Origin: Acidimicrobiia bacterium
GTDB taxonomy: Bacteria; Actinomycetota; Acidimicrobiia; Spongiisociales; Spongiisociaceae
DNA: 64,000 nucleotides
Reading direction: 5' to 3'
NCBI GenBank assembly: GCA_041576165.1
Contig: JBFGLM010000007.1
Span: forward strand, 32,001 to 96,000
Part shown: piece by piece, positions 2,512 to 16,393 of the stretch
Position numbering within the stretch: the first letter of the stretch is position 1
How the letters are laid out: every line of letters begins with the position of its first letter
Notes under the pieces: model-generated
Seen by the model: the letters and a program-made list of their open reading frames with translations, nothing else
Told to the model about the DNA's origin: nothing
The model's database searches: none
Program-made: the position numbers and the translations under genes

Positions 2512-3822
2512 CTAGCCCAACGCCTCGGTGAGCGACTCTTCGAACACCATCAGCGTCGTAGCCACATCCTCATCTGACAGCGACGCATTCAGGAACCACG
2601 GCTCCAGGGCGTCCGGGTTGGGCAGCACACCCCGCCGGATCATCGCCATCGTCAGCTCCTCGTACAGATCGGCATTGTGACCGCCGGCCGAGCGGAAGTC
2701 GGTGGGAGGGGTGGCGCCGAAATAGAAACCGAACATGGCCGGCCGGCCGTGCACGCTGGATTCGACGCCGCGATCGGACAGGATCTTGGCGGCGCCGTCC
2801 AACAAGGTGGTGCCGAGCCGGTCGACGTGGCTCAACGGCTCGCCGGTCATCAACTCCTCGACGGTGGCCCGGGCGGCCGCCGCCGAAATACTGTTGCCGG
2901 AGAACGTTCCGGCCTGAGTGATGCCCTCGCGGCGCCACCCGTCGAGCACCGGGCCTCGTCCGGCGATAGCGGCCACCGGGACGCCGTTACCGAGCGCCTT
3001 GGCGAAGGTTGCCAGATCCGGTACGACTCCGTAGACCTCGGCGGCTCCCCCGACCGCGATGCGGAAGCCGGTCTTGACCTCGTCGAAGATGAGGACCGAC
3101 CCGTATTGGTCGCACAGTTCGCGCAGCCCGGTCAGGAACCCGTCCGCCGGTTCGATCCCCATGGCGTTGCCCAGCATGGGTTCCACCACAACCGCGGCGA
3201 TGCGGGTTCCGTCGTTGGCGAACACCCGCCGGACCGCCTCGAGGTCGTTGTATGGGAGCGTTCGGATGAGGGTGGCGATCATCTCGGGCATTCCCGAGCT
3301 CATCGGGGCCGGTATCGGCCGGTACGGCGAGCCGAGAGCTTCGGGCGGCTCACCGGGCGTGGAGAACATCAAGTAATCGTGGGCGCCGTGGTAGGTCCCT
3401 TCGAATTTCAGAATGACATCTCGGCCGGTGAAGCCGCGGGCCAAGCGGATGGCGTGCATGGTCGCCTCGGTGCCGGTGTTCGTGAACCGCAGCTGCTCCA
3501 CCCACGGCACCGCTTCCTTGACCCGCTCGGCCGCCAGGACCTCCCGTTCCTGGGTGAAGGCGAAGGTCATGCCGTGGGCGGCGGCTTCTGTGACGGCCTC
3601 GGTCACCGCCGGATGGCCGTGGCCCAGGATCACCGGGCCAAAGCCGTTGTGATAGTCGATGTAGCGCTTACCGTCCGAGTCGTAGACGTAGGCGCCCTCG
3701 CCGCGCGACAGCACGATCGTGTCTTCCCGTCCCCAGTAGCGCCATCCGCTGGAGACGCCGTTGACCAGAGCGGCAAATGCTCGGTCGAACCACTCTCTTG
3801 TTTTCGGACCCTGCAAGCTCAT
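2512..3822 (-). CDS. Class III PLP aminotransferase (GSA-aminomutase-like)
   Basis: FTNTGTEATM, FEGTYHG, LIFDEVKTGFR, TFAKALGNG, GTFSGN. Start moved to ATG 3822, which overlaps the upstream stop (ATGA) and follows GGAGG. Confidence 0.85.
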   Translation of the reverse strand: MSLQGPKTREWFDRAFAALVNGVSSGWRYWGREDTIVLSRGEGAYVYDSDGKRYIDYHNGFGPVILGHGHPAVTEAVTEAAAHGMTFAFTQEREVLAAERVKEAVPWVEQLRFTNTGTEATMHAIRLARGFTGRDVILKFEGTYHGAHDYLMFSTPGEPPEALGSPYRPIPAPMSSGMPEMIATLIRTLPYNDLEAVRRVFANDGTRIAAVVVEPMLGNAMGIEPADGFLTGLRELCDQYGSVLIFDEVKTGFRIAVGGAAEVYGVVPDLATFAKALGNGVPVAAIAGRGPVLDGWRREGITQAGTFSGNSISAAAARATVEELMTGEPLSHVDRLGTTLLDGAAKILSDRGVESSVHGRPAMFGFYFGATPPTDFRSAGGHNADLYEELTMAMIRRGVLPNPDALEPWFLNASLSDEDVATTLMVFEESLTEALG

Positions 3823-5225
3823 CTGCTTCCTCCAATCTTGACGATTCGCCACATCAGGTCGGCCCGCCGGGCTGGCCCGTCTCCTTGGTTCTCCACCCGG
3901 TCGGCGGACTGCATGACCAGCAGTCCGGTGTTGATTCCCGCCCAGCGAAGCGGCTCGGGTGGCCAGTGGCGTTGCCGGCGATTCACCCAGGGAAATGACG
4001 TGAGTTCGGTTTGATGCCCGGTGATGAGATCCGCCAGGGTGCGACCGGCGATGTTGGTGGCCGTCACCCCCGACCCGACGTAGCCGCCGGCATAGGCGAG
4101 CCGGCCGGCGCTGTCGATTCCGACCGACGGATGCCAGTCGCGAGGTACACCTAGCACGCCACCCCACCGGTGCGAGATGGGAACCTCGCGTAACTGCGGG
4201 AAGACTTCCAGCAACGCAGTGTGTACCGCATCGAACACCTCGGGGGGGAATCCGGCATTGGGCCGGATACGAGACGCGTAGTCGTACGGGGCGCCGCGGC
4301 CGCCAAACGCAACCCGGCCGTCGGCGGTGCGCTGGCCGTAGACGACGAGATGGCGGAGATCCCCGAACGTCTCCCGGTTGGCCAGCCCGATCTCATTCCA
4401 CAGGTCGTCGGGGATCGGTTCGGTTGCGATCATCAGCGAATACAGCGGGGCCAGGAGCCGTCGCAGCCCGGGCAAGTTGCGGGTGTAGCCCTCGGTGGCC
4501 CGCACCACCATGCCGGCGGTGATGGTGCCGCCGCGGGTGACGACCTGCCCGGCGCCCAATTCGGTGGCCGGGGTCGACTCGAAGATCTGCACCCCTCGGC
4601 TCCCTACGGCGACAGCCAGTCCGTGCACGAGCGTGGCCGGCTGGATGGCGGCGGTGTTCGCCGACCACAGGCCACCCAGCACATCGGCGGCCCGGCCGAT
4701 GTCGCATGCCTCCTGGGCGGTCAGGACCCGGGTGTCGGCCGCGGTCCAGCCGTAGTGATGGGCTTCCTCCGCGTCGGCGCGGGCCCGAGCGAGTTGGCCT
4801 TGATTGCGGAGGAATTCGACGCTGCCAGCTTTGCTGTAGTTGCAGTCGATCCCTTCCTCGGCCGCCACCCGACCGACTTCGTCGACCGCCTCCCGCAATA
4901 CCGCGCCCCATCGCACCGCTGTAGCGTGGTCGGACTGCTGCTCGATTCGGCTCGGCCCGGCCGCGAACCCGTCGTAGCACCACCCACCGTTGCGCCCCGA
5001 GGCGCCGTATCCGACGTGGTGGGCGTCGATGACGGCAATCGAGAGCGCCGGGTCGCGTTCGAGGAGATAATGGGCCGTCCACAATCCGGTGTAGCCGGCG
5101 CCGACGATCGCGACGTCTGTGTCCAGATCTCGGTTCAGCGGCGGCCGGTTGGCAACCTGCTCCGGCAGGTGATCCCACCACAGCGGCCGGCCGGCGGCCG
5201 GCGTCGGGGATGACGAGGAGACCAT
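3819..5225 (-). CDS. FAD-dependent oxidoreductase (PuuB/DadA-like amine oxidase)
   Basis: IVGAGYTGLW, GASGRNGG, GGYVGSGV and C-terminal WPPEPLRW motifs. Confidence 0.85.
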   Translation of the reverse strand: MVSSSSPTPAAGRPLWWDHLPEQVANRPPLNRDLDTDVAIVGAGYTGLWTAHYLLERDPALSIAVIDAHHVGYGASGRNGGWCYDGFAAGPSRIEQQSDHATAVRWGAVLREAVDEVGRVAAEEGIDCNYSKAGSVEFLRNQGQLARARADAEEAHHYGWTAADTRVLTAQEACDIGRAADVLGGLWSANTAAIQPATLVHGLAVAVGSRGVQIFESTPATELGAGQVVTRGGTITAGMVVRATEGYTRNLPGLRRLLAPLYSLMIATEPIPDDLWNEIGLANRETFGDLRHLVVYGQRTADGRVAFGGRGAPYDYASRIRPNAGFPPEVFDAVHTALLEVFPQLREVPISHRWGGVLGVPRDWHPSVGIDSAGRLAYAGGYVGSGVTATNIAGRTLADLITGHQTELTSFPWVNRRQRHWPPEPLRWAGINTGLLVMQSADRVENQGDGPARRADLMWRIVKIGGSR

Positions 5226-5235
5226 TGGACGATTA

Positions 5236-5265
5236 ATATAACACTGTCATATAACGCTGTTGTAT
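5236..5265. promoter_or_regulatory. Tandem imperfect palindromes in divergent promoter, probable TetR operator
   Basis: ATATAACA-C-TGTCATAT (5236-5252) and ATATAACG-C-TGTTGTAT (5249-5265), 13-bp period, in an AT-rich 61-bp spacer. Confidence 0.6.
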
Positions 5266-5286
5266 CAACTGCGGGAGAGGTTTGCC

Positions 5287-6723
5287 ATGGCCGAAGCCGT
5301 CAAGCTCTACATCGCCGGTGAATGGACCGAAGGCACCGGCACCGAGGTGCATCAGTTGGTGTCCCCGGTCAACGGCGAGCACATCGCCGACATCCCGATC
5401 GCCAGCCGGGACGACGTGGACCGGGCGGTGGCGGCAGCCCGGGCGGCGCAAGACGAGTACCGGCATTGGTCGGCCATCGAACGGGCCGAGCTGAACCATC
5501 GGATCGCAGGTGCGATTGAGCCGCTGATCGAAGAGGTCGCTCGAGTCCAGACCCTTGAGCAGGGCAAGCCCTACCACGAGGAATCGCTGGCCGACGTCGA
5601 CGAGGCCAACAGCTATTTCTCGGAATCGGCGGAGGACGTCAAGAGGCTGGAGGGGGCGGTCATCCCCACCACCGACCGCAACGTGCGCATGTTTACGTTC
5701 CACCGCCCGGTGGGGGTGTGGGCCGCGATCACACCCTGGAACTTCCCGGTGACGATTCCTCTCGAATACGTCGGGCCCGGCCTCGCCACCGGCAACGCCG
5801 TCATTGTGAAGCCGCCGATTCATACCTCATGGGCCCTGCTCAAACTGGCCGAGGCGTTCGACGCCGCCGAGGTACCCAAGGGCCTCATCTCGATCATCCC
5901 CGGCGCGGCCGAGATCGGCGAGATGCTGGTTACCCACGACGGGATCGACGCCATCGGGTTCACCGGTTCGTCTCAGACAGGCAAACGAATCATCTCCCAG
6001 ATGGGGATCAAGCGCTCGATCATGGAGATGTCGGGCAACGGGCCCACCATCGTCACCGCCGACGCCAATGTCGCAGCGGCGGCCGAAGCAGCCGTGTATG
6101 GCACCTACTACAACGCCGGGCAGGTGTGCTGCGCCACCGAACGGGTGATCGTGGTCGAGTCGGTGCACGACGAGCTGGTGGAGCGATCACTCGAGGCGGC
6201 CAAGGTCGTGCACCTCGGCGACCCGTTCGATGAGAAGACCAACATGGGCCCCCTCAACAACGAACCCACCGCCACCAAGATGGACCGGCATATGGCCGAT
6301 GCCCGGGAGCGGGGGGCCGAGGTGCTGCTGGGCGGGGGGCGGGTGGCCGGGTTCCCCACTGACCTCTACTACGACTTCACGATCATTGATCAGGTCCCGG
6401 AGGATGCGGCCGTTGCTCGGGAGGAGTCGTTCGGCCCGGTGATGCCGATCCTGGTTGCGGCCGATGACGAGGAGGCGGTGGCGATTGCCAACCGGACCAA
6501 CCTGGGCCTGCAGGCCGCCGTGTTCACCCGCAGCCTCGACAAGGCGTTCTGGTACACCGACCGGATCCGGTCCGGCACCGTGATCGTCAACGACTCCACC
6601 GACTTCTGGGAGACGTTCCAACCGTTCGGGGGCGCAGCTGGCACCGATACCGGTTGGGGCCGCGGGAAGGTGCCGGAATTCACCGACCTCCAGACCATGG
6701 TGATCAATCTCAACAACGTCTGA
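5287..6723 (+). CDS. Aldehyde dehydrogenase family protein
   Basis: ITPWNFP, FTGS, EMSGNGP, catalytic GQVCCA, EESFGP; GGAGAGG upstream of ATG 5287. Confidence 0.92.
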   Translation: MAEAVKLYIAGEWTEGTGTEVHQLVSPVNGEHIADIPIASRDDVDRAVAAARAAQDEYRHWSAIERAELNHRIAGAIEPLIEEVARVQTLEQGKPYHEESLADVDEANSYFSESAEDVKRLEGAVIPTTDRNVRMFTFHRPVGVWAAITPWNFPVTIPLEYVGPGLATGNAVIVKPPIHTSWALLKLAEAFDAAEVPKGLISIIPGAAEIGEMLVTHDGIDAIGFTGSSQTGKRIISQMGIKRSIMEMSGNGPTIVTADANVAAAAEAAVYGTYYNAGQVCCATERVIVVESVHDELVERSLEAAKVVHLGDPFDEKTNMGPLNNEPTATKMDRHMADARERGAEVLLGGGRVAGFPTDLYYDFTIIDQVPEDAAVAREESFGPVMPILVAADDEEAVAIANRTNLGLQAAVFTRSLDKAFWYTDRIRSGTVIVNDSTDFWETFQPFGGAAGTDTGWGRGKVPEFTDLQTMVINLNNV

Positions 6724-6749
6724 GCGAGCAGTTGGCCGGGCGGTGCTGG

Positions 6750-8318
6750 TCACGAGCCCGCGACCAGTTCCCCGTCGACGAACGTCGCGTCAACCGAGAT
6801 CGACCCGATGTCTTTCTCGACGAGAGGATCGGCCGTCGCCACCACCAAGTCGGCCACTTTGCCGGGAGTGATCGAGCCGCTGGTGTCATCGCGGTGGTTG
6901 ACGTAGGCGCTGCCCATAGTGAACCCGTACAGGACCTCCGCGGGCCCGAGCGCTTGATCTGGCAGGAAAGGCTCGTCCTCGGGCGCCTCCTGCCGGGTGA
7001 CCGCCACCGCCATTTGCTCGAACGGGTCGGCCGTGGACACCGGCCAGTCCGACCCGAAGGCCAGGCGGGCTGCGCCGGCGAGCAAATCCCGAAACCGGTA
7101 CTGCCACCCGGTGCGTTCAGGTCCGAGCCGGGGAGCGGTCAGCTGGAGCATGCACGCGTCGTTACACGCCCACAAAGCCTGGGCGTTGGCGACCACCCCC
7201 AACTCGGCAAAGCGGGGGACGTCGGCGTCGTTGATCACTTGAATGTGGGCGATCTGCGGACGTACCCGGGCGGCGTCGGCCGGGTCGCCGGCGGCGACCG
7301 CGTCCAAAGCATCCCTGATCGCCCGGTCGCCGATGGCGTGGAAGTGGGGCTGCACCCCGGCCGCCATGATGGCGGGCACCGCCTCGACCAGGACCTCGGG
7401 CGGGATGAAGGTGAGCCCGACATCGTCGACGGTGCCGGCATAGGGCGCCTGCAGGGCGGCGGTGCCGTTCTCACACACCCCATCAACCATGAGCTTGATG
7501 GCGGTCGGCTGGTAGCGAACAGTCGGCTCGACCGCGCGACGCAGGAGCTCCTCGAGCTGGTCGGTGCCGCGGTGACGATCCCACCACTGCGCCCCCACCA
7601 CCCGGGCGGTCAGGCCGCCATCGGCATCCAGGCGCCGGTACGCCTCGTGGGTGGGCTGCTCGACCCAGGCGTCCTGCCAGGCGGTGATGCCCAGACCCAG
7701 CAGCATTTCCTGCGCTCGCCGGATCCCCTCGACGTGATCGTCGACGGTGTCGCTGGGCGCGTGGCGGCCCACCAGCGCGACCGCCCCTTCCTGCAGGGTG
7801 CCGGACGGGTTTCCGTCCGCGTCGCGTTCGATCCGGCCGTCCGGCGGGTCGGGAGTGGCGGCGGTGACACCGGCCTGCGCCAACGCGCGGGTGTTGACCC
7901 AGGCGGCGTGGCCGTCCCGGCTGTGCAGGAACACCGGCCGGTCGGGAACGACGTGGTCGATCAGCTCGGTCCGGGCCACCCCACCGGGGAATGACTCCAT
8001 CGTCCAGCCGCCGCCCAGGATCCAAGTCTGGTCGGGATGGGTGGCGGCGTAGCGGGCGATGGCGTCGATGTATGCCGCCGGTTCCCCCACGTCGTGAAGG
8101 TCGCAGCGCAGCATGGCCAGCCCGCCGAGGGGCGGATGGATGTGGGCGTCCTGGAACCCGGGCAGGAGGGTACGGCCCGCCAGGTCGTACGGGGTGCCGG
8201 GTGGCGGCGGGCCCGTGCCGACGGCCTCGATCCGGCCTTGATCGACCATGACCCAGTCGGGATCGGAGTGATTCGGATCAAGGCTGTGGATGACCCCGTT
8301 GGTGAATACTGTCGGCAT
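6750..8318 (-). CDS. Amidohydrolase (YtcJ/NfdA-like)
   Basis: PGFQDAHIH, HAAWVN, KLMVDG, HAIGDRA, FGSDWPV, GKVADLV. Confidence 0.9.
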   Translation of the reverse strand: MPTVFTNGVIHSLDPNHSDPDWVMVDQGRIEAVGTGPPPPGTPYDLAGRTLLPGFQDAHIHPPLGGLAMLRCDLHDVGEPAAYIDAIARYAATHPDQTWILGGGWTMESFPGGVARTELIDHVVPDRPVFLHSRDGHAAWVNTRALAQAGVTAATPDPPDGRIERDADGNPSGTLQEGAVALVGRHAPSDTVDDHVEGIRRAQEMLLGLGITAWQDAWVEQPTHEAYRRLDADGGLTARVVGAQWWDRHRGTDQLEELLRRAVEPTVRYQPTAIKLMVDGVCENGTAALQAPYAGTVDDVGLTFIPPEVLVEAVPAIMAAGVQPHFHAIGDRAIRDALDAVAAGDPADAARVRPQIAHIQVINDADVPRFAELGVVANAQALWACNDACMLQLTAPRLGPERTGWQYRFRDLLAGAARLAFGSDWPVSTADPFEQMAVAVTRQEAPEDEPFLPDQALGPAEVLYGFTMGSAYVNHRDDTSGSITPGKVADLVVATADPLVEKDIGSISVDATFVDGELVAGS

Positions 8319-8439
8319 CGGCCGGAGCGTACTGCTCCGATGGACCGGGCGGCCGGCCGCCACCGGTGCGGCGATGGCGAGCCGGGTACGATCGCCGCAT
8401 CACACACAGCACTGCACAGAAATCGGACATCGAGCTGTC

Positions 8440-10008
8440 GTGACCCCGGCCGAGCTGCTGGCGGCCTTGCAACCGGGCGCACCGCCCGATGTGGACCAGA
8501 GTCGGTGGGACGTGGTAGTCGTGGGCGGCGGCCACAACGGGCTGACCGCCGCCGCCTATCTGGCGCGAGCCGGCAAACGGGTCGTCGTTCTGGAGCGGCG
8601 CGACCGGTTGGGCGGGGCGGCCACCCTCGAGGAAATGTGGCCGGGGTACATCATCTCGCCCTGTGCCTACCTGGCCGGTCTGTTTCACCAGAGGGTCATC
8701 GACGATCTCGATCTCTACGGCCATGGTCTGGAGATCGTCATGGGGGAGGCCACCTACTTCGCCCCGTTCGAGGACGGCCACGCCTTCACGATGTGGAGCG
8801 ACACCGAGCGGACGTTGGAATCGATCCGTTCGTTCGCACCCGCCGAGGTCGACGGCTTCCTCGCCCGCGAGGACGTGCACGACCGGCTGCGAGACGCCCT
8901 GCGGCCGGCGGATGACGCCGACCTCTGGCTGGCGGAGCCGCCCACCCGGGAGGAGATCGAGAAGCGGCTCGGGCACGATTCCGAGCTGATCTCCACGTTG
9001 TTCGAGGACTCCCAGGTGGATCATCTCCGTCGTTACTTGCGGGATGAGCGGATGGTGACGGCCTTCGTGGGACAGGGAATCATCGGCACCAACGCGTCGC
9101 CGTTCGATCCCGGCACCGCCTCGATCGACTATCACCACGCGTCGGGTCGCCAGGAGGGCCAGCCCGGGGAGTGGGGTTTCGTGATGGGAGGCGTGGGGGC
9201 GGTTTCCCATGCGTTGCACATGGCCGCGGTCGAAGCTGGGGCGATGGTGGCAACTGGGGTTCCGGTGGCCGAGATCCGACCGGGCGTGGGCGTCATGCTC
9301 GACAGCGGCGACCTGATCGAGGCGCCAATTGTGGTATCGAACGCCGACCCGGCCCGAACCGTAACCCTGCTGGGAGAGGCCGCGTCACAAGGCCTGCGCG
9401 GGGCGGTCGCGCAGGTCCCACGGGAGAGCGCAACCGTGAAGGTCACGTTCGCTCTCTCGGCGCTGCCCGACTTCGGCTACCCCCACGCCACCCTGGCCCA
9501 GGTGGAGATCGCCCGCAGCGCCGATGCCCTCCACGAATCCTATCTGGCGGCGCAGCGCGGAAAGGTGTCCGACGAACTGTGGTGTGAGCTGTACTTCCAG
9601 ACGCCCTACGACTCGTCGATCGCGCCGCCCGGCAAGCACGTCCTTTCGGCTTTCTGCCAGTACGTGCCGTATCGGTGGGCGGATGGCCGCAGCTGGGACG
9701 AGCATCGGGCAGATGTAGGGGAGCGGGTGGTCCGCTCGATCGAGCGGTTCGCACCCGGATTCGGGGGCCTGGTGGAAGAGATTTGGGTCGACGGTCCACC
9801 CGACATAGAGGCGCGCACCGGTCTCACCGGGGGCCACATCTTCCATGGGGAATGCCTGCCGGCGTATATGTGGGACCGGAGGCTCCCGTACCGGACCGAC
9901 GTGGCGGGCGTGTACCTGTGCGGAGCCGGCACTCATCCAGGCGGCTCGGTCATCGGCGCCAACGGACGGAACGCGGCGCACGCGGTGCTGGCCGATCTCG
10001 GGCAATGA
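8440..10008 (+). CDS. Phytoene-dehydrogenase-like FAD oxidoreductase
   Basis: VVGGGHNGL...LERRDRLGGA, GGHIFHG, YLCGAGTHPGG. Start (GTG 8440) approximate. Confidence 0.85.
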   Translation: MTPAELLAALQPGAPPDVDQSRWDVVVVGGGHNGLTAAAYLARAGKRVVVLERRDRLGGAATLEEMWPGYIISPCAYLAGLFHQRVIDDLDLYGHGLEIVMGEATYFAPFEDGHAFTMWSDTERTLESIRSFAPAEVDGFLAREDVHDRLRDALRPADDADLWLAEPPTREEIEKRLGHDSELISTLFEDSQVDHLRRYLRDERMVTAFVGQGIIGTNASPFDPGTASIDYHHASGRQEGQPGEWGFVMGGVGAVSHALHMAAVEAGAMVATGVPVAEIRPGVGVMLDSGDLIEAPIVVSNADPARTVTLLGEAASQGLRGAVAQVPRESATVKVTFALSALPDFGYPHATLAQVEIARSADALHESYLAAQRGKVSDELWCELYFQTPYDSSIAPPGKHVLSAFCQYVPYRWADGRSWDEHRADVGERVVRSIERFAPGFGGLVEEIWVDGPPDIEARTGLTGGHIFHGECLPAYMWDRRLPYRTDVAGVYLCGAGTHPGGSVIGANGRNAAHAVLADLGQ

Positions 10009-10027
10009 CGGGCCGGGCCACGAGGTC

Positions 10028-11386
10028 ATGACGGCACTCCGGACGAGGCTGGCGGCCGGGGTGCTGCTCATCGTCGCCTGTAGTGGGGGAACGCCGTCGC
10101 CGGCGGAACCCGCCCAGCCGGAGCCGACCCAGACGCCGCCAGCTTCGAGCGCAGCCCCGACAACGGCTGTCGCAAACTCCACGCCACCGTCCGCCGCGGT
10201 GGCGGCGCCCGTGGGCGCCGCGACGACCAGCGGCGATCTCAGCGGCAACCGGATTGTCTGGGGATCGGTCGACTTGGGCCAGGCCCCGCTAGTCGTGGCC
10301 CTGGACCGTCCGGCCGCCTGGATAGTGGGGATCCTCGACGGAGCGAGCCCGACCTGGGTTGTAGTGGCCGACGACGGCACGATCGAGGCCTACCGGATGG
10401 AGAACGATTCCGCGATCCGGGCTCCGATTGGCGGTCCGTTGACGTTGCCCCCGGGTGTGCCACCCTTGGTTGTCGCCGATGCAGCCGGGCCGCAGGTGGT
10501 CGATCTGGCAGATGCGGGTCCCGGATTGGATCCTTCGCCGCTCACTGCTCCGGGTCGGGTGGGTGACGAGGTGATCTTCATGGGAACGGACGGTCGGGTG
10601 GTCGCGGGCGGAGTTCCCGTCGAGGGCCCGCCGGCGCTGGCGGATGGCAGGATCGTGACCTCATCGGAGGGACGGGTGGCCTATCTGGCCGAGCCCACCG
10701 GTCGTTTTGGTCACGGCGTGCTGGGCGACTTCGTCGAGTCGGAGTCGATCGTCGTCACCGACCTTGCGCCCCCCGGATCGGTGGATGCAATCCTCGACGC
10801 GCCCGACGACACCGTGTTCGAGGCCATTTCTCCTATGTGGGCTGATGTTGACGGCGACGGCGTCGAGGAGATCGTGGCGACTGCGTCGGACGGGATGTCG
10901 GGCGCCCGCCTCGTGGTGTATGCCGCGGAGGGCGGGATCATGGCGCAGTCCGTTCCGATTGGGCGCGGCAACCGCTGGCTGAACCAACTCGGCGCGGGCC
11001 CGGTCGGGCCCGGCGGCGAGATCGAGATCGTTGAGGTGCGAACTCCGCACATCGGCGGTGAGGTCCGCTGGTACCGGCTGTCGGGTGGCCAGCTGGTGCT
11101 GCAGACGACCGCCCGCACCTACTCCACCCATCGGATCGGGTCGCGCAACCTGGATCAGGGCCTATTCGTCGACACCAACGGTGATGGCCGTCTCGATGTG
11201 CTCGTGCCGACGCAGGACCAAACGGCGCTGGTAGGACTCGCTAGGACCGGCGACGGGGTGGCGGTCACGGCGTCGGTTGAGCTCGGTGCTCGCCTGGTGA
11301 GCAATGTCGCGGCGGTGGGCTACAGAGATGGCGCCGCCGCGCTGGCCGCCGGCACCGCCGACGGCAGCCTGTATATCTGGCCCTGA
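10028..11386 (+). CDS. Lipoprotein with FG-GAP-like (DxDGDG) repeats
   Basis: Lipobox IVAC, Pro/Thr/Ala linker, DVDGDGVEEIV and DTNGDGRLDVL motifs, HGVLGD and RTPHIGG. Confidence 0.75.
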   Translation: MTALRTRLAAGVLLIVACSGGTPSPAEPAQPEPTQTPPASSAAPTTAVANSTPPSAAVAAPVGAATTSGDLSGNRIVWGSVDLGQAPLVVALDRPAAWIVGILDGASPTWVVVADDGTIEAYRMENDSAIRAPIGGPLTLPPGVPPLVVADAAGPQVVDLADAGPGLDPSPLTAPGRVGDEVIFMGTDGRVVAGGVPVEGPPALADGRIVTSSEGRVAYLAEPTGRFGHGVLGDFVESESIVVTDLAPPGSVDAILDAPDDTVFEAISPMWADVDGDGVEEIVATASDGMSGARLVVYAAEGGIMAQSVPIGRGNRWLNQLGAGPVGPGGEIEIVEVRTPHIGGEVRWYRLSGGQLVLQTTARTYSTHRIGSRNLDQGLFVDTNGDGRLDVLVPTQDQTALVGLARTGDGVAVTASVELGARLVSNVAAVGYRDGAAALAAGTADGSLYIWP

Positions 11387-11393
11387 CCACCGT

Positions 11394-12566
11394 TCAGCCC
11401 TCGACGTGGGACTGGTTGAGGGGCATGAGGAAGAACCACAACGGCCGGGGGATGTCCTCGTCCTGGGCCATGGCTGCCTGGGCGGCGTGCACCACTTTGC
11501 CGGCTTCGGTGTGCTGGTAGATCCAGCTGTCCACCTGGCGGGCGCCCGGGACGTGATCAGCGAGCGACTGGGCCGCCTCTTCGTAATAGGAGCGGACGTC
11601 TAGCGCGGCCGCAAGCACGTCGCCCCCCGGCACCCCGGCCTCTTTGAAGTGGACACCCTCGCCGATGCGGACGAACGCCTCGAGAATCGCCGGAATGTCA
11701 TCGACCGTGCCGGCCCGCCCGACGCTGGTGATCCCGTTGCGTTCGAGCGTTCGGTTGTAGGCCGGCCGGATCCCGTTGGCTTCGTCGATCGCCGGATGCA
11801 GATCGGGATCGAACCTCGGCGGAATCTGGCAGACGAGCGCCTCGTCTGATTGATCTTCCAGAACCTCGGGAAACTCGACGAGCACCGGTCCGGATGGCTC
11901 CTTCAGCAGATCGAGGGCGGCCGTCATGACCCTCTTCTGGTAGTCGGGGTCGTTAGGTTTGCCCAGCGGGCGCCCCAGCGGAAACTCGACGTACAGCGCC
12001 CGGGGCGGGGCGGACCGTTCGATCTGGCCCCGGACCGACGCAATCACGACGGTGGAAAGCCCGGCGCCTTCGAGGATGTGGCCCAGCGTACCGACCGTAC
12101 GCGTGCACAGCGGTCAGACGGGAGTGAGCAACACCACCTCAACGCCGTCGTCCTGGAGGATTTGCGCAGCGGCCGGGCCGGTGTCGAGGCGCATGGTGGC
12201 GAGTGTGTGGTCTCCCTGCGCGCCCATGAACGAGATGTGTTGGTTTGCGACTGAGCCGATTGTGCCCGCGGCGGCCATTTCGTCGAGGCGGTCCATCGGG
12301 ATGACGACGTTGATGTCGCTGTTGAATCCAGACCTGTCAAAGTTCTGGCTGCGATGCGACAGCGTGAGGTGTTTCTCGCCGTGAGGAATCACCGTGAAGC
12401 CCTGGTCCTGGTTCGACCACATGATCACGCCGTCGGTGCGCAGACCCGCGGTCGTGACAATCGCCACCCGGGCGTCGGCCAGCGCCGGGGGCCTGGTGAA
12501 CGCGGTCTCCTCGAACTCGTATACGGGAATGTCGTTGTACGTTGCTCTGACTTTGGCGTCGCTCAT
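11394..12566 (-). CDS. PrdB/GrdB-like selenoprotein (Sec151, UxxC) with C-terminal extension, 390 aa
   Basis: ORFs 12114-12626 and 11394-12047 are in one frame, separated only by TGA 12114-12116. Readthrough gives VLLTPV-U-PLCTRTVGTLGHILEGAGLSTVVI...PPRALYVEFPLGRPLG. ARVAIVTTAG and DINVVIPMDRLDEM are reductase selenoprotein B motifs. Confidence 0.88.
12086..12102 (-). promoter_or_regulatory. Bacterial SECIS hairpin
   Basis: UGA + 11 nt + GCGUAC-GGUCG-GUACGC; spacing and GGUC loop match the E. coli fdhF SECIS. Confidence 0.8.
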
Positions 12567-12620
12567 GGGAGGCGAGCGTAGCGGCTCACCGCTCACGGCC
12601 GCGCAAGATCGAGCAGCGTT

Positions 12621-12647
12621 TGTCACAACCAGGAAGGCTGTCTCGTC
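12621..12647 (+). promoter_or_regulatory. ECF41 (SigJ)-type promoter
   Basis: Exact TGTCACA-N16-CGTC upstream of the oxidoreductase-sigJ operon; AAGGAG RBS at 12661. Confidence 0.85.
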
Positions 12648-12670
12648 AACTCTGCGTCGAAAGGAGTTGT

Positions 12671-13936
12671 ATGACGACCATCGTCATCGGCGGCGGCCTC
12701 TCAGGCCTGACCGCAGCCAACACCCTGGCGGATCGTGGCGAAACCGTCACCTTGCTCGAAGCACGCAATCGGCTCGGTGGCCGTGCCACCACCGACGAGC
12801 GGGACGGGCACCTGTTCAACCAGGGCCCCCACGCCCTCTATCTGGCCGGCAACGGCCTGCGAATCCTGCGCGAGCTTGGCATCGATCCGCCGGGCGGGGT
12901 ACCGCCCGTCGAGGGCGCGCTGGGCGTCTACGAAGGTCAAATCGTGCGATTGCCGTCCAGTCGCTGGTCCTTGCTGCGGACGCCGCTCCTCGCCGCGAGC
13001 GAGAAGATCGAGCTGGCGAAGATGCTCCTGGCCCTCACCCGGGTTGCGACCAGCCCCCTTGCCGCCATGTCGACACGTGAGTGGTTGGACGCAACCTTGA
13101 GCACGGAACGTCTCCGGCTGCTGGTTGGGGGCATGATCAGTGTTGCCACCTATGCGGCCGATCTCGACGTGCTCTCCGCCGATGTCGGTGTGTCTCAGCT
13201 GCAGCTGGCATTTCACAACGTTCGGTACGTCGATGGAGGATGGGAAACGATCGTGAATGCCCTGGCCGCCCGGGCCCGCACCGCCGGCGTGGACATCCGC
13301 ACCGGATCTGCTGCTTCCTCGGTCGAGCCGGCGCGCGGCGGCGGTTGGGCGGTGGACCTCTCCGATGGCAGATTGAGGGCGGATCAGGTCATCGTTGCGG
13401 CCGCCTCACCGGCCGCGGCGGCGCGCCTGACCGGTTCGGAGGCCCTGCTGGAATCGAGCGGGCGGGTGCAGCCGATTGCTGCCGCGTCTCTGGACGTTGG
13501 ACTACGGGCACTGCCAGTCCCTCGTCGTCGTTTCGCGTACGGTATCGACCGTCCACTGTATTTCTCGGTCCACAACCCGCCGGCCGGTCTCGGCCCGGGA
13601 ATCACGCTCCATGTGACGAAATACCTCAGCTGCGACGGTGAGTCACCAGCGGCTTCGGTGCGTTCCGAACTCGAGGACTTCCTCCAGTTGCTGCAGCCGG
13701 GTTGGCGGAACGTTCTCGACACGGCGCGGTTCCTCCGCCGGATGATGGTGTCCAACGCCATCCCGACCGCCCCCCATGGTGCCGGCGGCCGTCCCGACGT
13801 CGTCGTGCCCGACCGCGCCGGCATCTTCGTGGCAGGCGATTGGGTAGGCCCCGAGGGACATCTCGCCGACGCGGCCATAACATCAGGAAGGCGGGCCGCA
13901 GAGGCCGTGCTCGCCGCGAGACTGGTCCGAGCATGA
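12671..13936 (+). CDS. FAD-dependent oxidoreductase (phytoene desaturase-like), ECF41 target
   Basis: IVIGGGLSGL...LEARNRLGGR, FNQGPH, FVAGDWVG; ATGA-coupled to the sigma gene. Confidence 0.85.
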   Translation: MTTIVIGGGLSGLTAANTLADRGETVTLLEARNRLGGRATTDERDGHLFNQGPHALYLAGNGLRILRELGIDPPGGVPPVEGALGVYEGQIVRLPSSRWSLLRTPLLAASEKIELAKMLLALTRVATSPLAAMSTREWLDATLSTERLRLLVGGMISVATYAADLDVLSADVGVSQLQLAFHNVRYVDGGWETIVNALAARARTAGVDIRTGSAASSVEPARGGGWAVDLSDGRLRADQVIVAAASPAAAARLTGSEALLESSGRVQPIAAASLDVGLRALPVPRRRFAYGIDRPLYFSVHNPPAGLGPGITLHVTKYLSCDGESPAASVRSELEDFLQLLQPGWRNVLDTARFLRRMMVSNAIPTAPHGAGGRPDVVVPDRAGIFVAGDWVGPEGHLADAAITSGRRAAEAVLAARLVRA

Positions 13937-14817
13937 GCGAGATCTTCGAGGCACACCGGCGCCGGCTGTTCGGTATCGCATACGCCATGCTGGGCCAAGT
14001 CATGGACGCCGAGGACGTTGTCCAGGACGCCTATTTGCGCTGGCAATCGGTGGAACAGACCCGGGTCGAGAACCCGGGCGGCTACCTCACAACCATCACC
14101 ACCCGAATCGCCATCGATCGCCTTCGTTCGGCCCAGAAACGGCGCGAAACATACATCGGGCCGTGGCTCCCGGAGCCAGTCGTGACGGACGCTGATCCCG
14201 CAGATGTCGTGGCCGAAGCCGAGCGGATCTCCTTTGCGTTCCTGACCGCTCTGGAGCGCCTCAACCCGGTGGAGCGGGCCGTGCTGGTGCTGCGGGATGT
14301 GTTCGATCTGGAGTACGCGGACATCGCCGACGTTGTCGACCGGACCCCAGCCAATTGTCGCCAGATTGCGGTCAGGGCGCGGGAGCACGTCGGCGACGCC
14401 GGCCGCTCGTACAAGCCGCCACCGGAACGCGAGCAGGAACTTGTCGCTGCCTTCGTCACCGCCCTGGCGGAGGGAGAGCTGGATCGGCTGATGGACGTGT
14501 TCGCCGCAGATGTGACCCTGTGGTCGGACGGCGGTGGGAAGGCTCGGGCCGCTCGTCACCCGATCTCCGGCGCGCTGAAGGTCGCCCGGTTTCTGCTCGG
14601 GATCCGGAGGAACGCCACGCCCGATGACACGTGGGGATACACCACCGCGAACGGAGACCCCGCCATTGTCGTGGCTCGTGACGGCAAACCCTTCTCGGTC
14701 ATGGTGCTCCAGATGTCCTATGGCGGGATCGTCGCGCTCCGCTCAGTGCTCAACCCGGACAAGCTCGAACATTGGTCCGACGTCGCAGCACCGAACCCCA
14801 TGACGTTCGTGACGTAG
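13933..14817 (+). CDS. sigJ: ECF41 family sigma factor SigJ with SnoaL-like C-terminal domain
   Basis: YIGPWLPEP linker, DGGGK and NPDKL motifs. Confidence 0.93.
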   Translation: MSEIFEAHRRRLFGIAYAMLGQVMDAEDVVQDAYLRWQSVEQTRVENPGGYLTTITTRIAIDRLRSAQKRRETYIGPWLPEPVVTDADPADVVAEAERISFAFLTALERLNPVERAVLVLRDVFDLEYADIADVVDRTPANCRQIAVRAREHVGDAGRSYKPPPEREQELVAAFVTALAEGELDRLMDVFAADVTLWSDGGGKARAARHPISGALKVARFLLGIRRNATPDDTWGYTTANGDPAIVVARDGKPFSVMVLQMSYGGIVALRSVLNPDKLEHWSDVAAPNPMTFVT

Positions 14818-14866
14818 CCGTCGGCGTCCGGTCTACGCTTCCACGCAGGCGGCCACGGGGAGCAAC

Positions 14867-16393
14867 ATGCAGACGGGATCCAACGTCAGCACCGTGATCG
14901 AGGGCTGGATCGACCAGCGCGGCCCGGACGCAAGCGTGTTGATCACCGCCGCCGACGAGCACTGGTCGGGGGATCGGCTCCGCACCACCGTCAACCGGGT
15001 TGCCTCGCGGCTGCGCGAACTGGGAGTCCGGCGCGAAGAACGGATCCTCGTCGTGCTCGATGACACCCCGGCGTTTCCCGCCGCATTCCTGGGCTCGATG
15101 CGCATCGGCGCGGTACCGGTGCCGGTCAACTTCCTGGCCCGTCCGGAAGACTTCGGCTATTTCCTGGACGACGCCTACGCGGTGGCGGCCATTGTCGACG
15201 CGGCATTCCTACCGGTGGTTGAGCCCCAGGTCACGTCCCGGCCGAAGGTGCGGCTCATCGTCGCCAACGGAGAGCCGCCCGCCGGCGCTGACAACCTCGA
15301 CGATTTCATGACAGAAGGTAACGCCGATACCGCGCCGGTCGCCACCCACCCCGACGACATGGCCTTCTGGCTGTACTCCTCCGGTTCCACCGGGAAGCCG
15401 AAGGGTGTTGTGCACAGCCACGCCGACGTGGCCCCCACCTGTGAGCTCTACGCCGGACCCACTCTCGGGATCGGAACCAACGACACCGTGTTCTCCAGCA
15501 CGAAGATGTTCCACGCCTATGGACTGGGCAACAACCTGACGTTCCCGCTGTGGTGGGGGGCCACCTCGGTGTACCTGACCGGACGCCCAACCCCGGATGC
15601 GTTGCTAGAGCGGGTTGCCACCCACCGGCCCACTCTGTACTTCTCGGTACCGGCCCTCTACAACGCGATCCTGGCCCACCCCGATTTCGACGCCGCGGAT
15701 TGGTCATCGGTCCGGCTGGGCGTTTCGGCGGCCGAGCCGCTTCCACCCGAGATCTGGCGGCGTTTCCATGACCGGACAGGAATCGAGATCCTCGACGGCG
15801 TCGGCTCCACCGAGATGCTCCACATCTATGCCTCCAACCAAGCCGGCTCGGTGAGGCCGGGCACGTCGGGCATGTCGGTCGCTGGGTACGACCTCGAGAT
15901 TCGCAACCCAGAGGGCGAACTGTGCGCCCCCGGTGAGGCGGGGGAGATGTGGGTACGCGGCCCCAGCGCGCTCAGCTCGTACTGGCATCAGCACGAACGG
16001 ACCCGGGAGAAGCTCCGCGGCGGCTGGTTTCTGACCGGTGACCGGTACCGCCGGGATGGCGACGGGTACTACACGTACGAGGGCCGGGTCGACGACATGA
16101 TGAAGGTGGGCGGCTTGTGGGTGAGCCCGATTGAGATCGAGAACCGGCTCATGGAACACGCCGCAGTTCGCGAAGCGGCCGTCGTCGCGGCTCAGATCGA
16201 AGGCACCTCGCGGATCAAAGCCTTTGTGATCCTCGCTGAAGTCGCAGCCAGGACCGACGCGTTGGTCGGCGAGCTGCAGGAATGGTGCAAGTCGGCGCTC
16301 CTTCGGTACCAGTACCCGCACCAGGTCGAATTTGTCGACGACTTTCCGCGTACGGCTACCGGCAAGATTCAGCGCTTCAAACTGCGCGACTGA
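14867..16393 (+). CDS. Benzoate-CoA ligase family protein
   Basis: WLYSSGSTGKPKG, KMFHAYGLGN, SAAEPLP, DGVGSTEMLHI, GLWVSPIEIE, TATGKIQRFKLR. Confidence 0.88.
   Translation: MQTGSNVSTVIEGWIDQRGPDASVLITAADEHWSGDRLRTTVNRVASRLRELGVRREERILVVLDDTPAFPAAFLGSMRIGAVPVPVNFLARPEDFGYFLDDAYAVAAIVDAAFLPVVEPQVTSRPKVRLIVANGEPPAGADNLDDFMTEGNADTAPVATHPDDMAFWLYSSGSTGKPKGVVHSHADVAPTCELYAGPTLGIGTNDTVFSSTKMFHAYGLGNNLTFPLWWGATSVYLTGRPTPDALLERVATHRPTLYFSVPALYNAILAHPDFDAADWSSVRLGVSAAEPLPPEIWRRFHDRTGIEILDGVGSTEMLHIYASNQAGSVRPGTSGMSVAGYDLEIRNPEGELCAPGEAGEMWVRGPSALSSYWHQHERTREKLRGGWFLTGDRYRRDGDGYYTYEGRVDDMMKVGGLWVSPIEIENRLMEHAAVREAAVVAAQIEGTSRIKAFVILAEVAARTDALVGELQEWCKSALLRYQYPHQVEFVDDFPRTATGKIQRFKLRD

Follow-up and report, generated by a model that had tools for sequence, protein, structure and literature searches.

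Does the pair of open reading frames (ORFs) that gene calling places at 12566-11394 represent two genes or one, and, if it is one, what could a relative of a multi-subunit reductase do where its partner subunits appear to be missing? The locus lies on the minus strand of a stretch of 64,000 nucleotides from an Acidimicrobiia bacterium (contig JBFGLM010000007.1 of assembly GCA_041576165.1), and we refer to the whole of this stretch as the window. An original prediction, made from the letters of the window, had read the locus as a single stand-alone selenoprotein that resembles the D-proline reductase subunit PrdB and the glycine reductase subunit GrdB, carries a selenocysteine insertion sequence (SECIS) and bears an extra C-terminal domain. 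In our assessment it is probable that 12566-11394 encodes a stand-alone selenol/thiol reductase in the form of a two-domain PrdB-like selenoprotein. That it is a genuine selenoprotein gene with a functional SECIS seems close to certain from the comparative evidence.

The ORF list contains two separate minus-strand ORFs, at 12114..12626 (170 residues) and 11394..12047 (217 residues). When TGA is read as selenocysteine (Sec, U), translation from the ATG at 12566-12564 gives a single frame of 390 codons that ends with a terminal TGA at 11396-11394. Its sole internal stop is the TGA of codon 151 (12116-12114), read as TPV-U-PLC, which would place U151 and C154 in a UxxC motif. This is the frame that had been described at the outset, and on re-reading both its letters and its coordinates were found to be correct. 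The N-termini of full-length homologues align with that of the window protein (MSDAKVR...), which backs the choice of start codon. Contigs assembled from runs of two other studies, covering 11578-12195 and 11716-12278, show no difference at the TGA. The protein so read consists of a PrdB-like alpha/beta domain (residues 1-237; 11856..12566), recognized by TIGR04483, by Pfam GRDB and in a predicted model, and a helical C-terminal domain (residues 238-390; 11397..11855), which alignments, models and a profile search mark as family-specific and which includes an invariant cysteine, C246.

In order to determine how the interrupted codon behaves across relatives, we scanned species-representative genomes. 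The gene is not a one-off, as at least 563 relatives were found; the best 80 loci were kept. Most of these 80 are labelled as metagenome-assembled genomes (MAGs) of Acidimicrobiia, and the others as Binatia/Deltaproteobacteria, Myxococcota, Vulcanimicrobiaceae/Eremiobacterota, Chloroflexota and further groups; some relatives are, by label, marine single-cell genomes and MAGs. The codon homologous to the in-frame TGA is TGA in 79 of the 80 loci and TGT in one, a Solirubrobacterales MAG (L123). A survey of 301 genomes of the class gave a full-length match at E <=1e-40 in 40 of them; 40 of the 43 matches contain the TGA and three are free of stops. Two of the 43 come from an unpublished genome (G254), on which no claim rests.

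Homologues without TGA lead to the same position. Cysteine stands under U151 in all 19 homologues of a first alignment, in which C154 and C246 are invariant, and in 38 of the 43 full-length homologues without TGA that make up a second. The pairing of Cys with UGA at codon 151, on which the original prediction depended, is thus borne out. Judged from these alignments, the gene shows what is generally looked for in a selenoprotein, namely an in-frame UGA that aligns with Cys and protein similarity that runs across it. The protein database holds full-length homologues of 372-441 residues (45-54% identity) and also many pieces of 216-235 residues that begin right after the Sec site, because gene-callers stop at the TGA. 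The 217-residue ORF of the window is itself one of these pieces, and the expectation that standard gene calls cut the gene in two therefore proved right.

The five remaining homologues of the second alignment have Gly (three) or Ser (two) at the Sec position. They (P0039, P0042, P0043, P0047 and P0050, with locus L126 listed alongside) carry an extra Cys seven residues after the Sec position and four after C154, in the sequence RTVC. These forms may use a different redox arrangement or else be inactive. The extra Cys of RTVC is also present in some Sec forms.

A hairpin follows the TGA, as had been predicted: the letters GCGUAC-GGUCG-GUACGC are found at 12102-12086, and the spacer (12113-12103) is exactly 11 nucleotides. 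The upper stem-loop has six base pairs and the 5-nucleotide loop GGUCG, and it is identified by its sequence, by covariation and by RNAalifold. The 17-nucleotide hairpin by itself has a folding energy of -8.2 kcal/mol (z -2.61), which was equalled by 7 of 200 shuffles, and the case that can be made by folding energy in such GC-rich DNA is weak. The case made by comparison across relatives is strong. We aligned 76 distinct TGA-containing stretches of 48 nucleotides, each starting at the TGA, and RNAalifold recovered the same six pairs from them with no structure supplied. In alignment columns, pair 15-31 is G-C in 71 sequences, U-A in two, G-U in two and unpaired in one; pair 16-30 is C-G in 74 and unpaired in two; pair 17-29 is G-C in 56 and G-U in 20; pair 18-28 is C-G in 39, U-A in 35, U-G in two and never unpaired; pair 19-27 is A-U in 72, G-C in three and unpaired in one; and pair 20-26 is C-G in 73 and U-G in three. 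Both sides have changed in three of the six pairs (15-31, 18-28 and 19-27). Column 18 falls on the third, synonymous position of an Arg codon, and column 28 opens the next-but-two codon, which specifies Thr, Ala or Val; coding constraint would not by itself couple the two.

When the six-pair stem was tested together with a three-pair lower stem, 92.1% of the cells of these nine pairs could pair, a value reached by none of 500 shuffles, and sliding the 3' arm by one to three columns lowered pairing to 9.8-67.5%. The lower stem, which would extend the SECIS to 12080..12108, is the weaker part, its outermost pair being unpaired in 42 of the 76 sequences. In the loop, column G22 shows no variation and U23 is conserved to at least 90%. 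The three non-Sec homologues with readable DNA retain only two (Cys), four (Cys) and three (Gly) of the six hairpin pairs and so lack the hairpin. Among the TGA-containing relatives the hairpin is conserved, with compensatory changes.

The E. coli fdhF SECIS has an 11-nucleotide offset and a GGUC loop as well. In the bacterial SECIS consensus of the bSECISearch model, as summarized in a 2026 review (PMC13188914), a loop of 3-9 nucleotides sits on a stem of 4-16 base pairs at an energy of <=-7.5 kcal/mol, G stands in the first two loop positions and is followed by G or U, and the UGA lies 16-37 nucleotides from the loop. The window hairpin falls within this description at every point, with its loop of five nucleotides (GGUCG), its six base pairs, its distance of 17 nucleotides to the loop (11+6) and its energy of -8.2 kcal/mol. 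It resembles the consensus in its small apical loop, where G precedes G or U, the 6-base-pair upper stem, the 17-nucleotide distance and the energy, and differs from it in having a family-specific sequence. Most orthologues have a 3-nucleotide loop closed by an extra C-G pair, while the window has the 5-nucleotide loop. A search of 11300-12700 against Rfam gave nothing relevant; its four matches at E <=10 are all far under their gathering scores.

The genome also encodes the machinery that would be required. The window's assembly consists of 161 contigs, with 96.5% completeness and 7.5% contamination, and selA, selB, selD and tRNA-Sec were all found in it, each above its cut-off: selD, which itself has an in-frame TGA, at C1:171385-172317, selA-selB as two adjacent pairs at C24:55512-58621 and C100:605-3619, and tRNA-Sec as two genes (79.9 and 72.9 bits) at C1:33376-33466 and C145:1292-1382. 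The doubling of selA-selB and of tRNA-Sec may be a sign that the bin mixes two strains or two organisms. Three observations had been named beforehand as ones that would speak against a selenoprotein, namely a genome without Sec machinery, homologues without Cys/UGA pairing and a hairpin that is not conserved. All three were examined, and we found the machinery, the pairing and the conserved hairpin.

These results bear directly on the view that the locus is not one gene, the TGA being either a true stop (between two adjacent genes or in a pseudogene) or a codon for another amino acid. Gene-callers do give two ORFs, and one relative (G049) keeps the C-terminal half only. However, 79 of the 80 loci, which are labelled as several phyla, have TGA at this codon, with protein similarity across it; homologues have Cys at the site; the hairpin covaries and the Sec machinery is present; and independent contigs agree across the TGA. 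The gene's own terminator is a TGA, so TGA is still a stop in this organism. The two-gene or pseudogene explanation is already contradicted by the results, and we consider it extremely improbable. The copy in G049 (L027, at G049:C1:32641-36246) occupies about 1570-2200 of that locus and runs from the FPLGRPLG motif on at 66% identity; what precedes it in that frame is unrelated sequence, and the copy is probably a truncated remnant.

If the locus encodes one selenoprotein, which family does it belong to? Residues 29-148 match Pfam GRDB (PF07355) with 28.5 bits, over the cut-off of 22. Among NCBIfam models the best is TIGR04483 (PrdB), which aligns residues 28-223 with positions 26-220 of its 238 at 118.3 bits (E 3.4e-34) against a cut-off of 300. 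The models of glycine reductase type give less: 49 bits for NF040794 (GrdF; cut-off 800), 42.5 for NF040795 (GrdH; cut-off 775), 36.5 for the subfamily model TIGR01918 (cut-off 65.45) and 29.7 for TIGR01917 (GrdB; cut-off 602). Being over the Pfam cut-off and under those of NCBIfam, the protein is a superfamily member nearest to PrdB and an equivalog of no characterized subunit. The claim of PrdB/GrdB homology therefore stands at the level of the superfamily, whereas membership of the PrdB or Grd families proper, as NCBIfam delimits them, does not.

An AlphaFold2 model of the full-length single chain (44 sequences) has a predicted local distance difference test score (pLDDT) of 94.5 and a predicted template modelling score of 0.92. 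It consists of an alpha/beta domain that extends to about residue 237, a structured linker and then the helical domain, and it places Sec between strand 144-148 and helix 154-167. No solved relative was found in PDB by sequence, where only glutaredoxin CPYC segments came up at a non-significant E of 0.6, and a Foldseek search of PDB gave no match at E <=0.001 either for the whole model or for the C-terminal domain alone. A wide search with VIA-align returned generic LacI, SDR and Rossmann-like matches to residues 27-237 of the whole model, with a best Z of 8.4, a level rated common.

The extra C-terminal domain of about 150 residues proved to be real and family-wide. Its 153 residues, conserved in the alignments, were modelled alone (51 sequences) as an all-helical domain with a pLDDT of 93.3. 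Residues E262, R272, D323, R325, E329 and W348 of this domain are invariant. Its best VIA-align Z is 4.2, which does not show the fold to be new, and the ESM Atlas gave no usable match for it. With a profile of the domain, 433 clusters were recovered from 1.84 billion representative proteins. The listed ones comprise full-length forms, in which the domain occupies about 235-400, pieces that start after the TGA, in which it occupies about 80-230, and shorter proteins, which we take to be fragments. Two matches of odd length, P0138 (1019 residues, without a Pfam family) and P0185 (with IalB and enoyl-CoA hydratase), offer no functional clue. As far as sequence profiles can tell, the helical domain is found almost only in the two-domain PrdB-like family, and this distribution across clusters makes it a defining part of a subfamily and not a local fusion.

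PrdA and GrdE are partner subunits in which self-processing at a Cys gives a pyruvoyl group. The original prediction had stated that no such partner is encoded near the gene, and the PrdA/GrdE proprotein family PF09338 is indeed not among the scanned neighbors in the window. It has no match in the rest of the window's genome either. The same search found matches in 24 of 61 relatives, including 21 of the 28 genomes of the same family, which shows that it works. The genome that carries a 65%-identical orthologue (G059) has no PF09338 match as well. The GrdA family (PF04723) also gave no match in the window's genome; that search matched nothing anywhere and so lacks a positive control.

These data allow us to weigh the view that the protein is an ordinary subunit, either the PrdB of a D-proline reductase or a protein B of Grd type, and that the genes for its partners lie at other places in the genome or on DNA missing from the assembly. 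In favor of this view, PrdB is the NCBIfam family with the best match, several Cys homologues are named 'D-proline reductase (dithiol) PrdB' by the Joint Genome Institute, the genome is just 96.5% complete, so that a PrdA/GrdE gene may possibly lie on a missing contig, and genomes of the same family commonly have PF09338 genes, as counted above. However, the PrdB score is far from its cut-off, PF09338 was found neither in the window's genome nor in G059, the extra domain has no place in the 238-position PrdB model and no neighbor is conserved over the 80 loci. In addition, the PF09338 genes of the relatives that were checked (e.g. G009, G047 and G001) adjoin distant GrdB-like matches and not members of the two-domain family. 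We therefore regard an ordinary PrdB or protein B as improbable. In the same-family relatives that were compared (e.g. G009 and G001), the distant GrdB-like gene next to the PF09338 gene contains a TGA.

We clustered all ORFs of the 80 loci. No neighbor family occurs in more than 11 of them, the commonest being SDR (11 loci), TetR (10), acyl-CoA dehydrogenase (9), luciferase-like (9), SRPBCC (8) and AMP-binding proteins (7). These families were considered as a clue to the substrate and rejected, as their occurrence is limited to lineages.

What, then, could the enzyme do? It likely acts without a PrdA/GrdE-type partner, although we hold this less firmly than its identity as a selenoprotein reductase, and we give slightly less than an even chance to the proposal that it cleaves a bond of a small molecule reductively rather than carrying out plain thiol-disulfide exchange. 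In the usual account of PrdB and GrdB, which the 2026 review (PMC13188914) echoes in part, the Sec-Cys pair attacks a substrate carbon, resolves to a selenenylsulfide and is then reduced by thiols. In our reading, UGA-151 is decoded as Sec by SelB and tRNA-Sec under the direction of the hairpin 11 nucleotides downstream, and U151 and C154 would form a selenol/thiol redox pair. The selenolate would attack either a bound substrate or an acceptor of disulfide type, C154 would resolve the adduct to give a selenenylsulfide, and a thiol system, e.g. thioredoxin, would re-reduce it. Without a pyruvoyl partner, activation of the substrate must come from the protein itself, and the candidates are the helical domain and the linker residue C246. 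The helical domain, perhaps together with C246, would thus take over the binding of the substrate, a task of PrdA or GrdE in the classical complexes; the enzyme would work without a pyruvoyl partner, and its substrate would probably not be D-proline. The enzyme would then be a self-contained reductase, as the original prediction had it. A separate idea, that C246 itself undergoes self-processing to a pyruvoyl group in the manner of PrdA and GrdE, finds no support in sequence or fold similarity and remains an idea.

The main rival to reductive cleavage is that the protein is a genuine selenoprotein with only a thiol-disulfide or peroxide-type redox role, its UxxC being thioredoxin- or glutaredoxin-like. 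In the predicted model a beta-strand leads up to the motif, which stands at the start of a helix, the sole sequence matches in PDB are the non-significant glutaredoxin segments mentioned above, and the failure to find a PF09338 partner in the window's genome is in keeping with such a role. A 2006 survey places 'proline reductase' among homologues of thiol-based oxidoreductases (PMC1794560). On the other hand, homology spans nearly the whole PrdB model (26-220 of 238) and reaches well beyond the motif, and the combination of a family-wide domain of 153 residues with a large number of invariant polar residues points to a specific ligand. A thiol-disulfide oxidoreductase seems to us a tentative possibility.

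Several points weigh against a stand-alone two-domain reductase. Sec insertion and activity are both what we infer, and function is read from homology and architecture only. Every NCBIfam score is far under its cut-off and the Pfam match is marginal, while the fold matches of the N-terminal domain model are only generic Rossmann-like ones and are uninformative on chemistry. That the C-terminal domain or C246 might lie over U151 is conjecture. In its 48-nucleotide context the minimum-energy structure is not the hairpin but a different fold (-14.4 kcal/mol, z +0.26, equalled by 117 of 200 shuffles). The existence of the five Gly and Ser homologues among the 43 without TGA means that the residue at the Sec position is not indispensable for keeping the gene. 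The fragmentation, contamination and doubled Sec machinery of the genome also count here. Finally, the full-length gene occurs in none of the 28 other genomes of the same family, which have short paralogues only, and the assignment of the contig to its host is therefore not secure. The nearest orthologues (65-68% identity) are found in another family of the same order, and the placement of the gene may reflect horizontal transfer or a mis-binned contig, which 7.5% contamination makes indistinguishable.

The surroundings of the gene agree with the monocistronic look that had been ascribed to it. It is a lone minus-strand gene flanked by two plus-strand genes. Downstream, a convergent gene for an FG-GAP-repeat protein ends at 11386, and upstream lies a divergent gene for a flavin amine oxidase, whose start was placed at ATG 12671 behind AAAGGAG. 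The sequence TACGCT, a candidate -10 box 8 nucleotides ahead of the ATG, is present at 12575..12580 on the minus strand, as had been claimed, with no Shine-Dalgarno-like site; CCTCCC occupies the usual place of a ribosome-binding site. A scan for consensus promoters gave no sigma-70-type promoter, and a single terminator-like site, inside the gene and on the opposite strand, is no more than shuffles give. Among 78 orthologues with a clear start, 44 have only a Shine-Dalgarno-like site, 13 only TANNNT (counted when it starts at -15 to -11), one has both and 20 have neither; TANNNT is 2.8 times denser at these five positions than elsewhere upstream. A leaderless transcript is plausible here on such comparisons, and the TANNNT arrangement recurs in a minority of orthologues and does not seem to be a trait of the family.

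Farther neighbors encode a second amine oxidase, an amidohydrolase, an aldehyde dehydrogenase, a DAO-type oxidase, an extracytoplasmic function (ECF)-type sigma factor and an AMP-binding enzyme. With these and the divergent flavin amine oxidase, the gene lies inside a cluster (window 3819-10008 and 12620-16393) that resembles amine or amino-acid catabolism; the cluster is not conserved at the 80 related loci. Its ECF-type sigma factor has a weak, sub-threshold SnoaL-like match. The listed ORFs at 8290-10008 (amine oxidase) and 9845-11386 (FG-GAP-repeat protein) overlap by about 160 nucleotides, and the true start of the latter probably lies farther downstream. At 11389, in the gap between the convergent genes, the window has A and contigs of four runs have G. 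The Grd/Prd-type reductase clusters with PF09338 in the window's family lineage may merit a study of their own.

To our knowledge, PrdB and GrdB are known solely as components of Stickland reductases, which are multi-subunit enzymes of anaerobes, and we know of no explanation of the role that Sec-containing 'PrdB' genes play in the surface ocean. These genes are among the commonest selenoproteins of surface-ocean metagenomes. The locus gives this puzzle a concrete and testable form, with a two-domain architecture, a covarying SECIS and no pyruvoyl partner found, and its natural Cys variants should lend themselves to expression in ordinary hosts. A far-reaching extension, which we think rather unlikely, is that the locus belongs to a large unrecognized family of self-contained Sec enzymes in which the helical domain replaces the pyruvoyl subunit and which carry out an undescribed reductive cleavage. 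The hosts of such a family would be, by label, non-fermenting heterotrophs of the Acidimicrobiia, Binatia, Myxococcota and Vulcanimicrobiaceae. If this were true, the two-domain family could explain part of the 'PrdB' selenoprotein signal in oxic ocean metagenomes. Public gene calls cut the Sec forms into pieces of about 150 and about 220 residues labelled 'hypothetical', and a family model with read-through of the TGA would set the annotation of hundreds of genomes right. In the limited library of literature that we searched, none of the two-domain architecture, the independence from PrdA and the systematic two-ORF mis-annotation was found, and a search for PrdB-like and GrdB-like proteins turned up only GrdB-like genes of Synergistota.

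How does the gene compare with the known systems? PrdB belongs to D-proline reductase, whose Clostridium sticklandii enzyme was reportedly treated by Kabisch et al. in 1999 (as cited in PMC13188914 and PMC1088965). PrdB (TIGR04483) is the best-scoring family, and, as in the window protein, its UxxC contains Sec and a SECIS in the coding region comes after an in-frame UGA. In contrast to PrdB, which is single-domain with a model length of 238, the window protein has 153 extra C-terminal residues and 390 in total; its genome has no PrdA proprotein gene that we could find, its score is 118 bits against a cut-off of 300, and its host is Acidimicrobiia-like by the labels of related records and no Stickland fermenter. 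GrdB, GrdF and GrdH, which have about 430 residues and differ in their N-terminal half, belong to the same superfamily (as the Pfam GRDB match indicates) and have Sec at the equivalent place, but their models give weak partial matches only (29.7-49 bits against cut-offs of 65-800). Their partner GrdE was not found in the window's genome by PF09338, nor was GrdA in the search without a positive control. PrdB is described as a subunit of about 26 kDa in the 2026 review (PMC13188914).

Closer to hand, the window's own genome has three short PrdB-like genes with an in-frame TGA in UPxC (C15:13842-14474, C78:3793-4419 and C3:36997-37746; L023-L025), each with a predicted hairpin that starts about 10-11 nucleotides past the TGA. 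Their products are 31-36% identical to the window protein over residues ~4-242, but they stop shortly past the PrdB-like domain, without the helical one at the C-terminus. In the translations, as judged by eye, one of the three genes precedes an aldo/keto-reductase-like frame and another a MenB- or enoyl-CoA-hydratase-like frame. Of the 28 genomes of the same family, 26 have comparable short forms.

The last comparison is with the 'PrdB' genes of environmental surveys. The Sargasso Sea survey counted 42 Sec 'PrdB' genes in a UxxC group (PMC1088965), the Global Ocean Sampling survey counted 235 Sec PrdB genes and 110 Cys homologues (PMC2398784), and the 2006 survey reported proline reductase (PrdB) in non-fermenters, e.g. 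Anaeromyxobacter and Geobacter (PMC1794560). Since these surveys of 2005-2008 list a UxxC PrdB, PrdB-type selenoproteins outside Stickland fermenters and Clostridia were already known. The two-domain form and the lack of PrdA are not described in the accessible parts of the two marine surveys (PMC1088965, PMC2398784). Both surveys counted the family in oxic marine samples and assigned proline reduction to it. The window protein resembles the group that they counted in being a Sec-containing homologue of PrdB, and that group is abundant in oxic marine samples.

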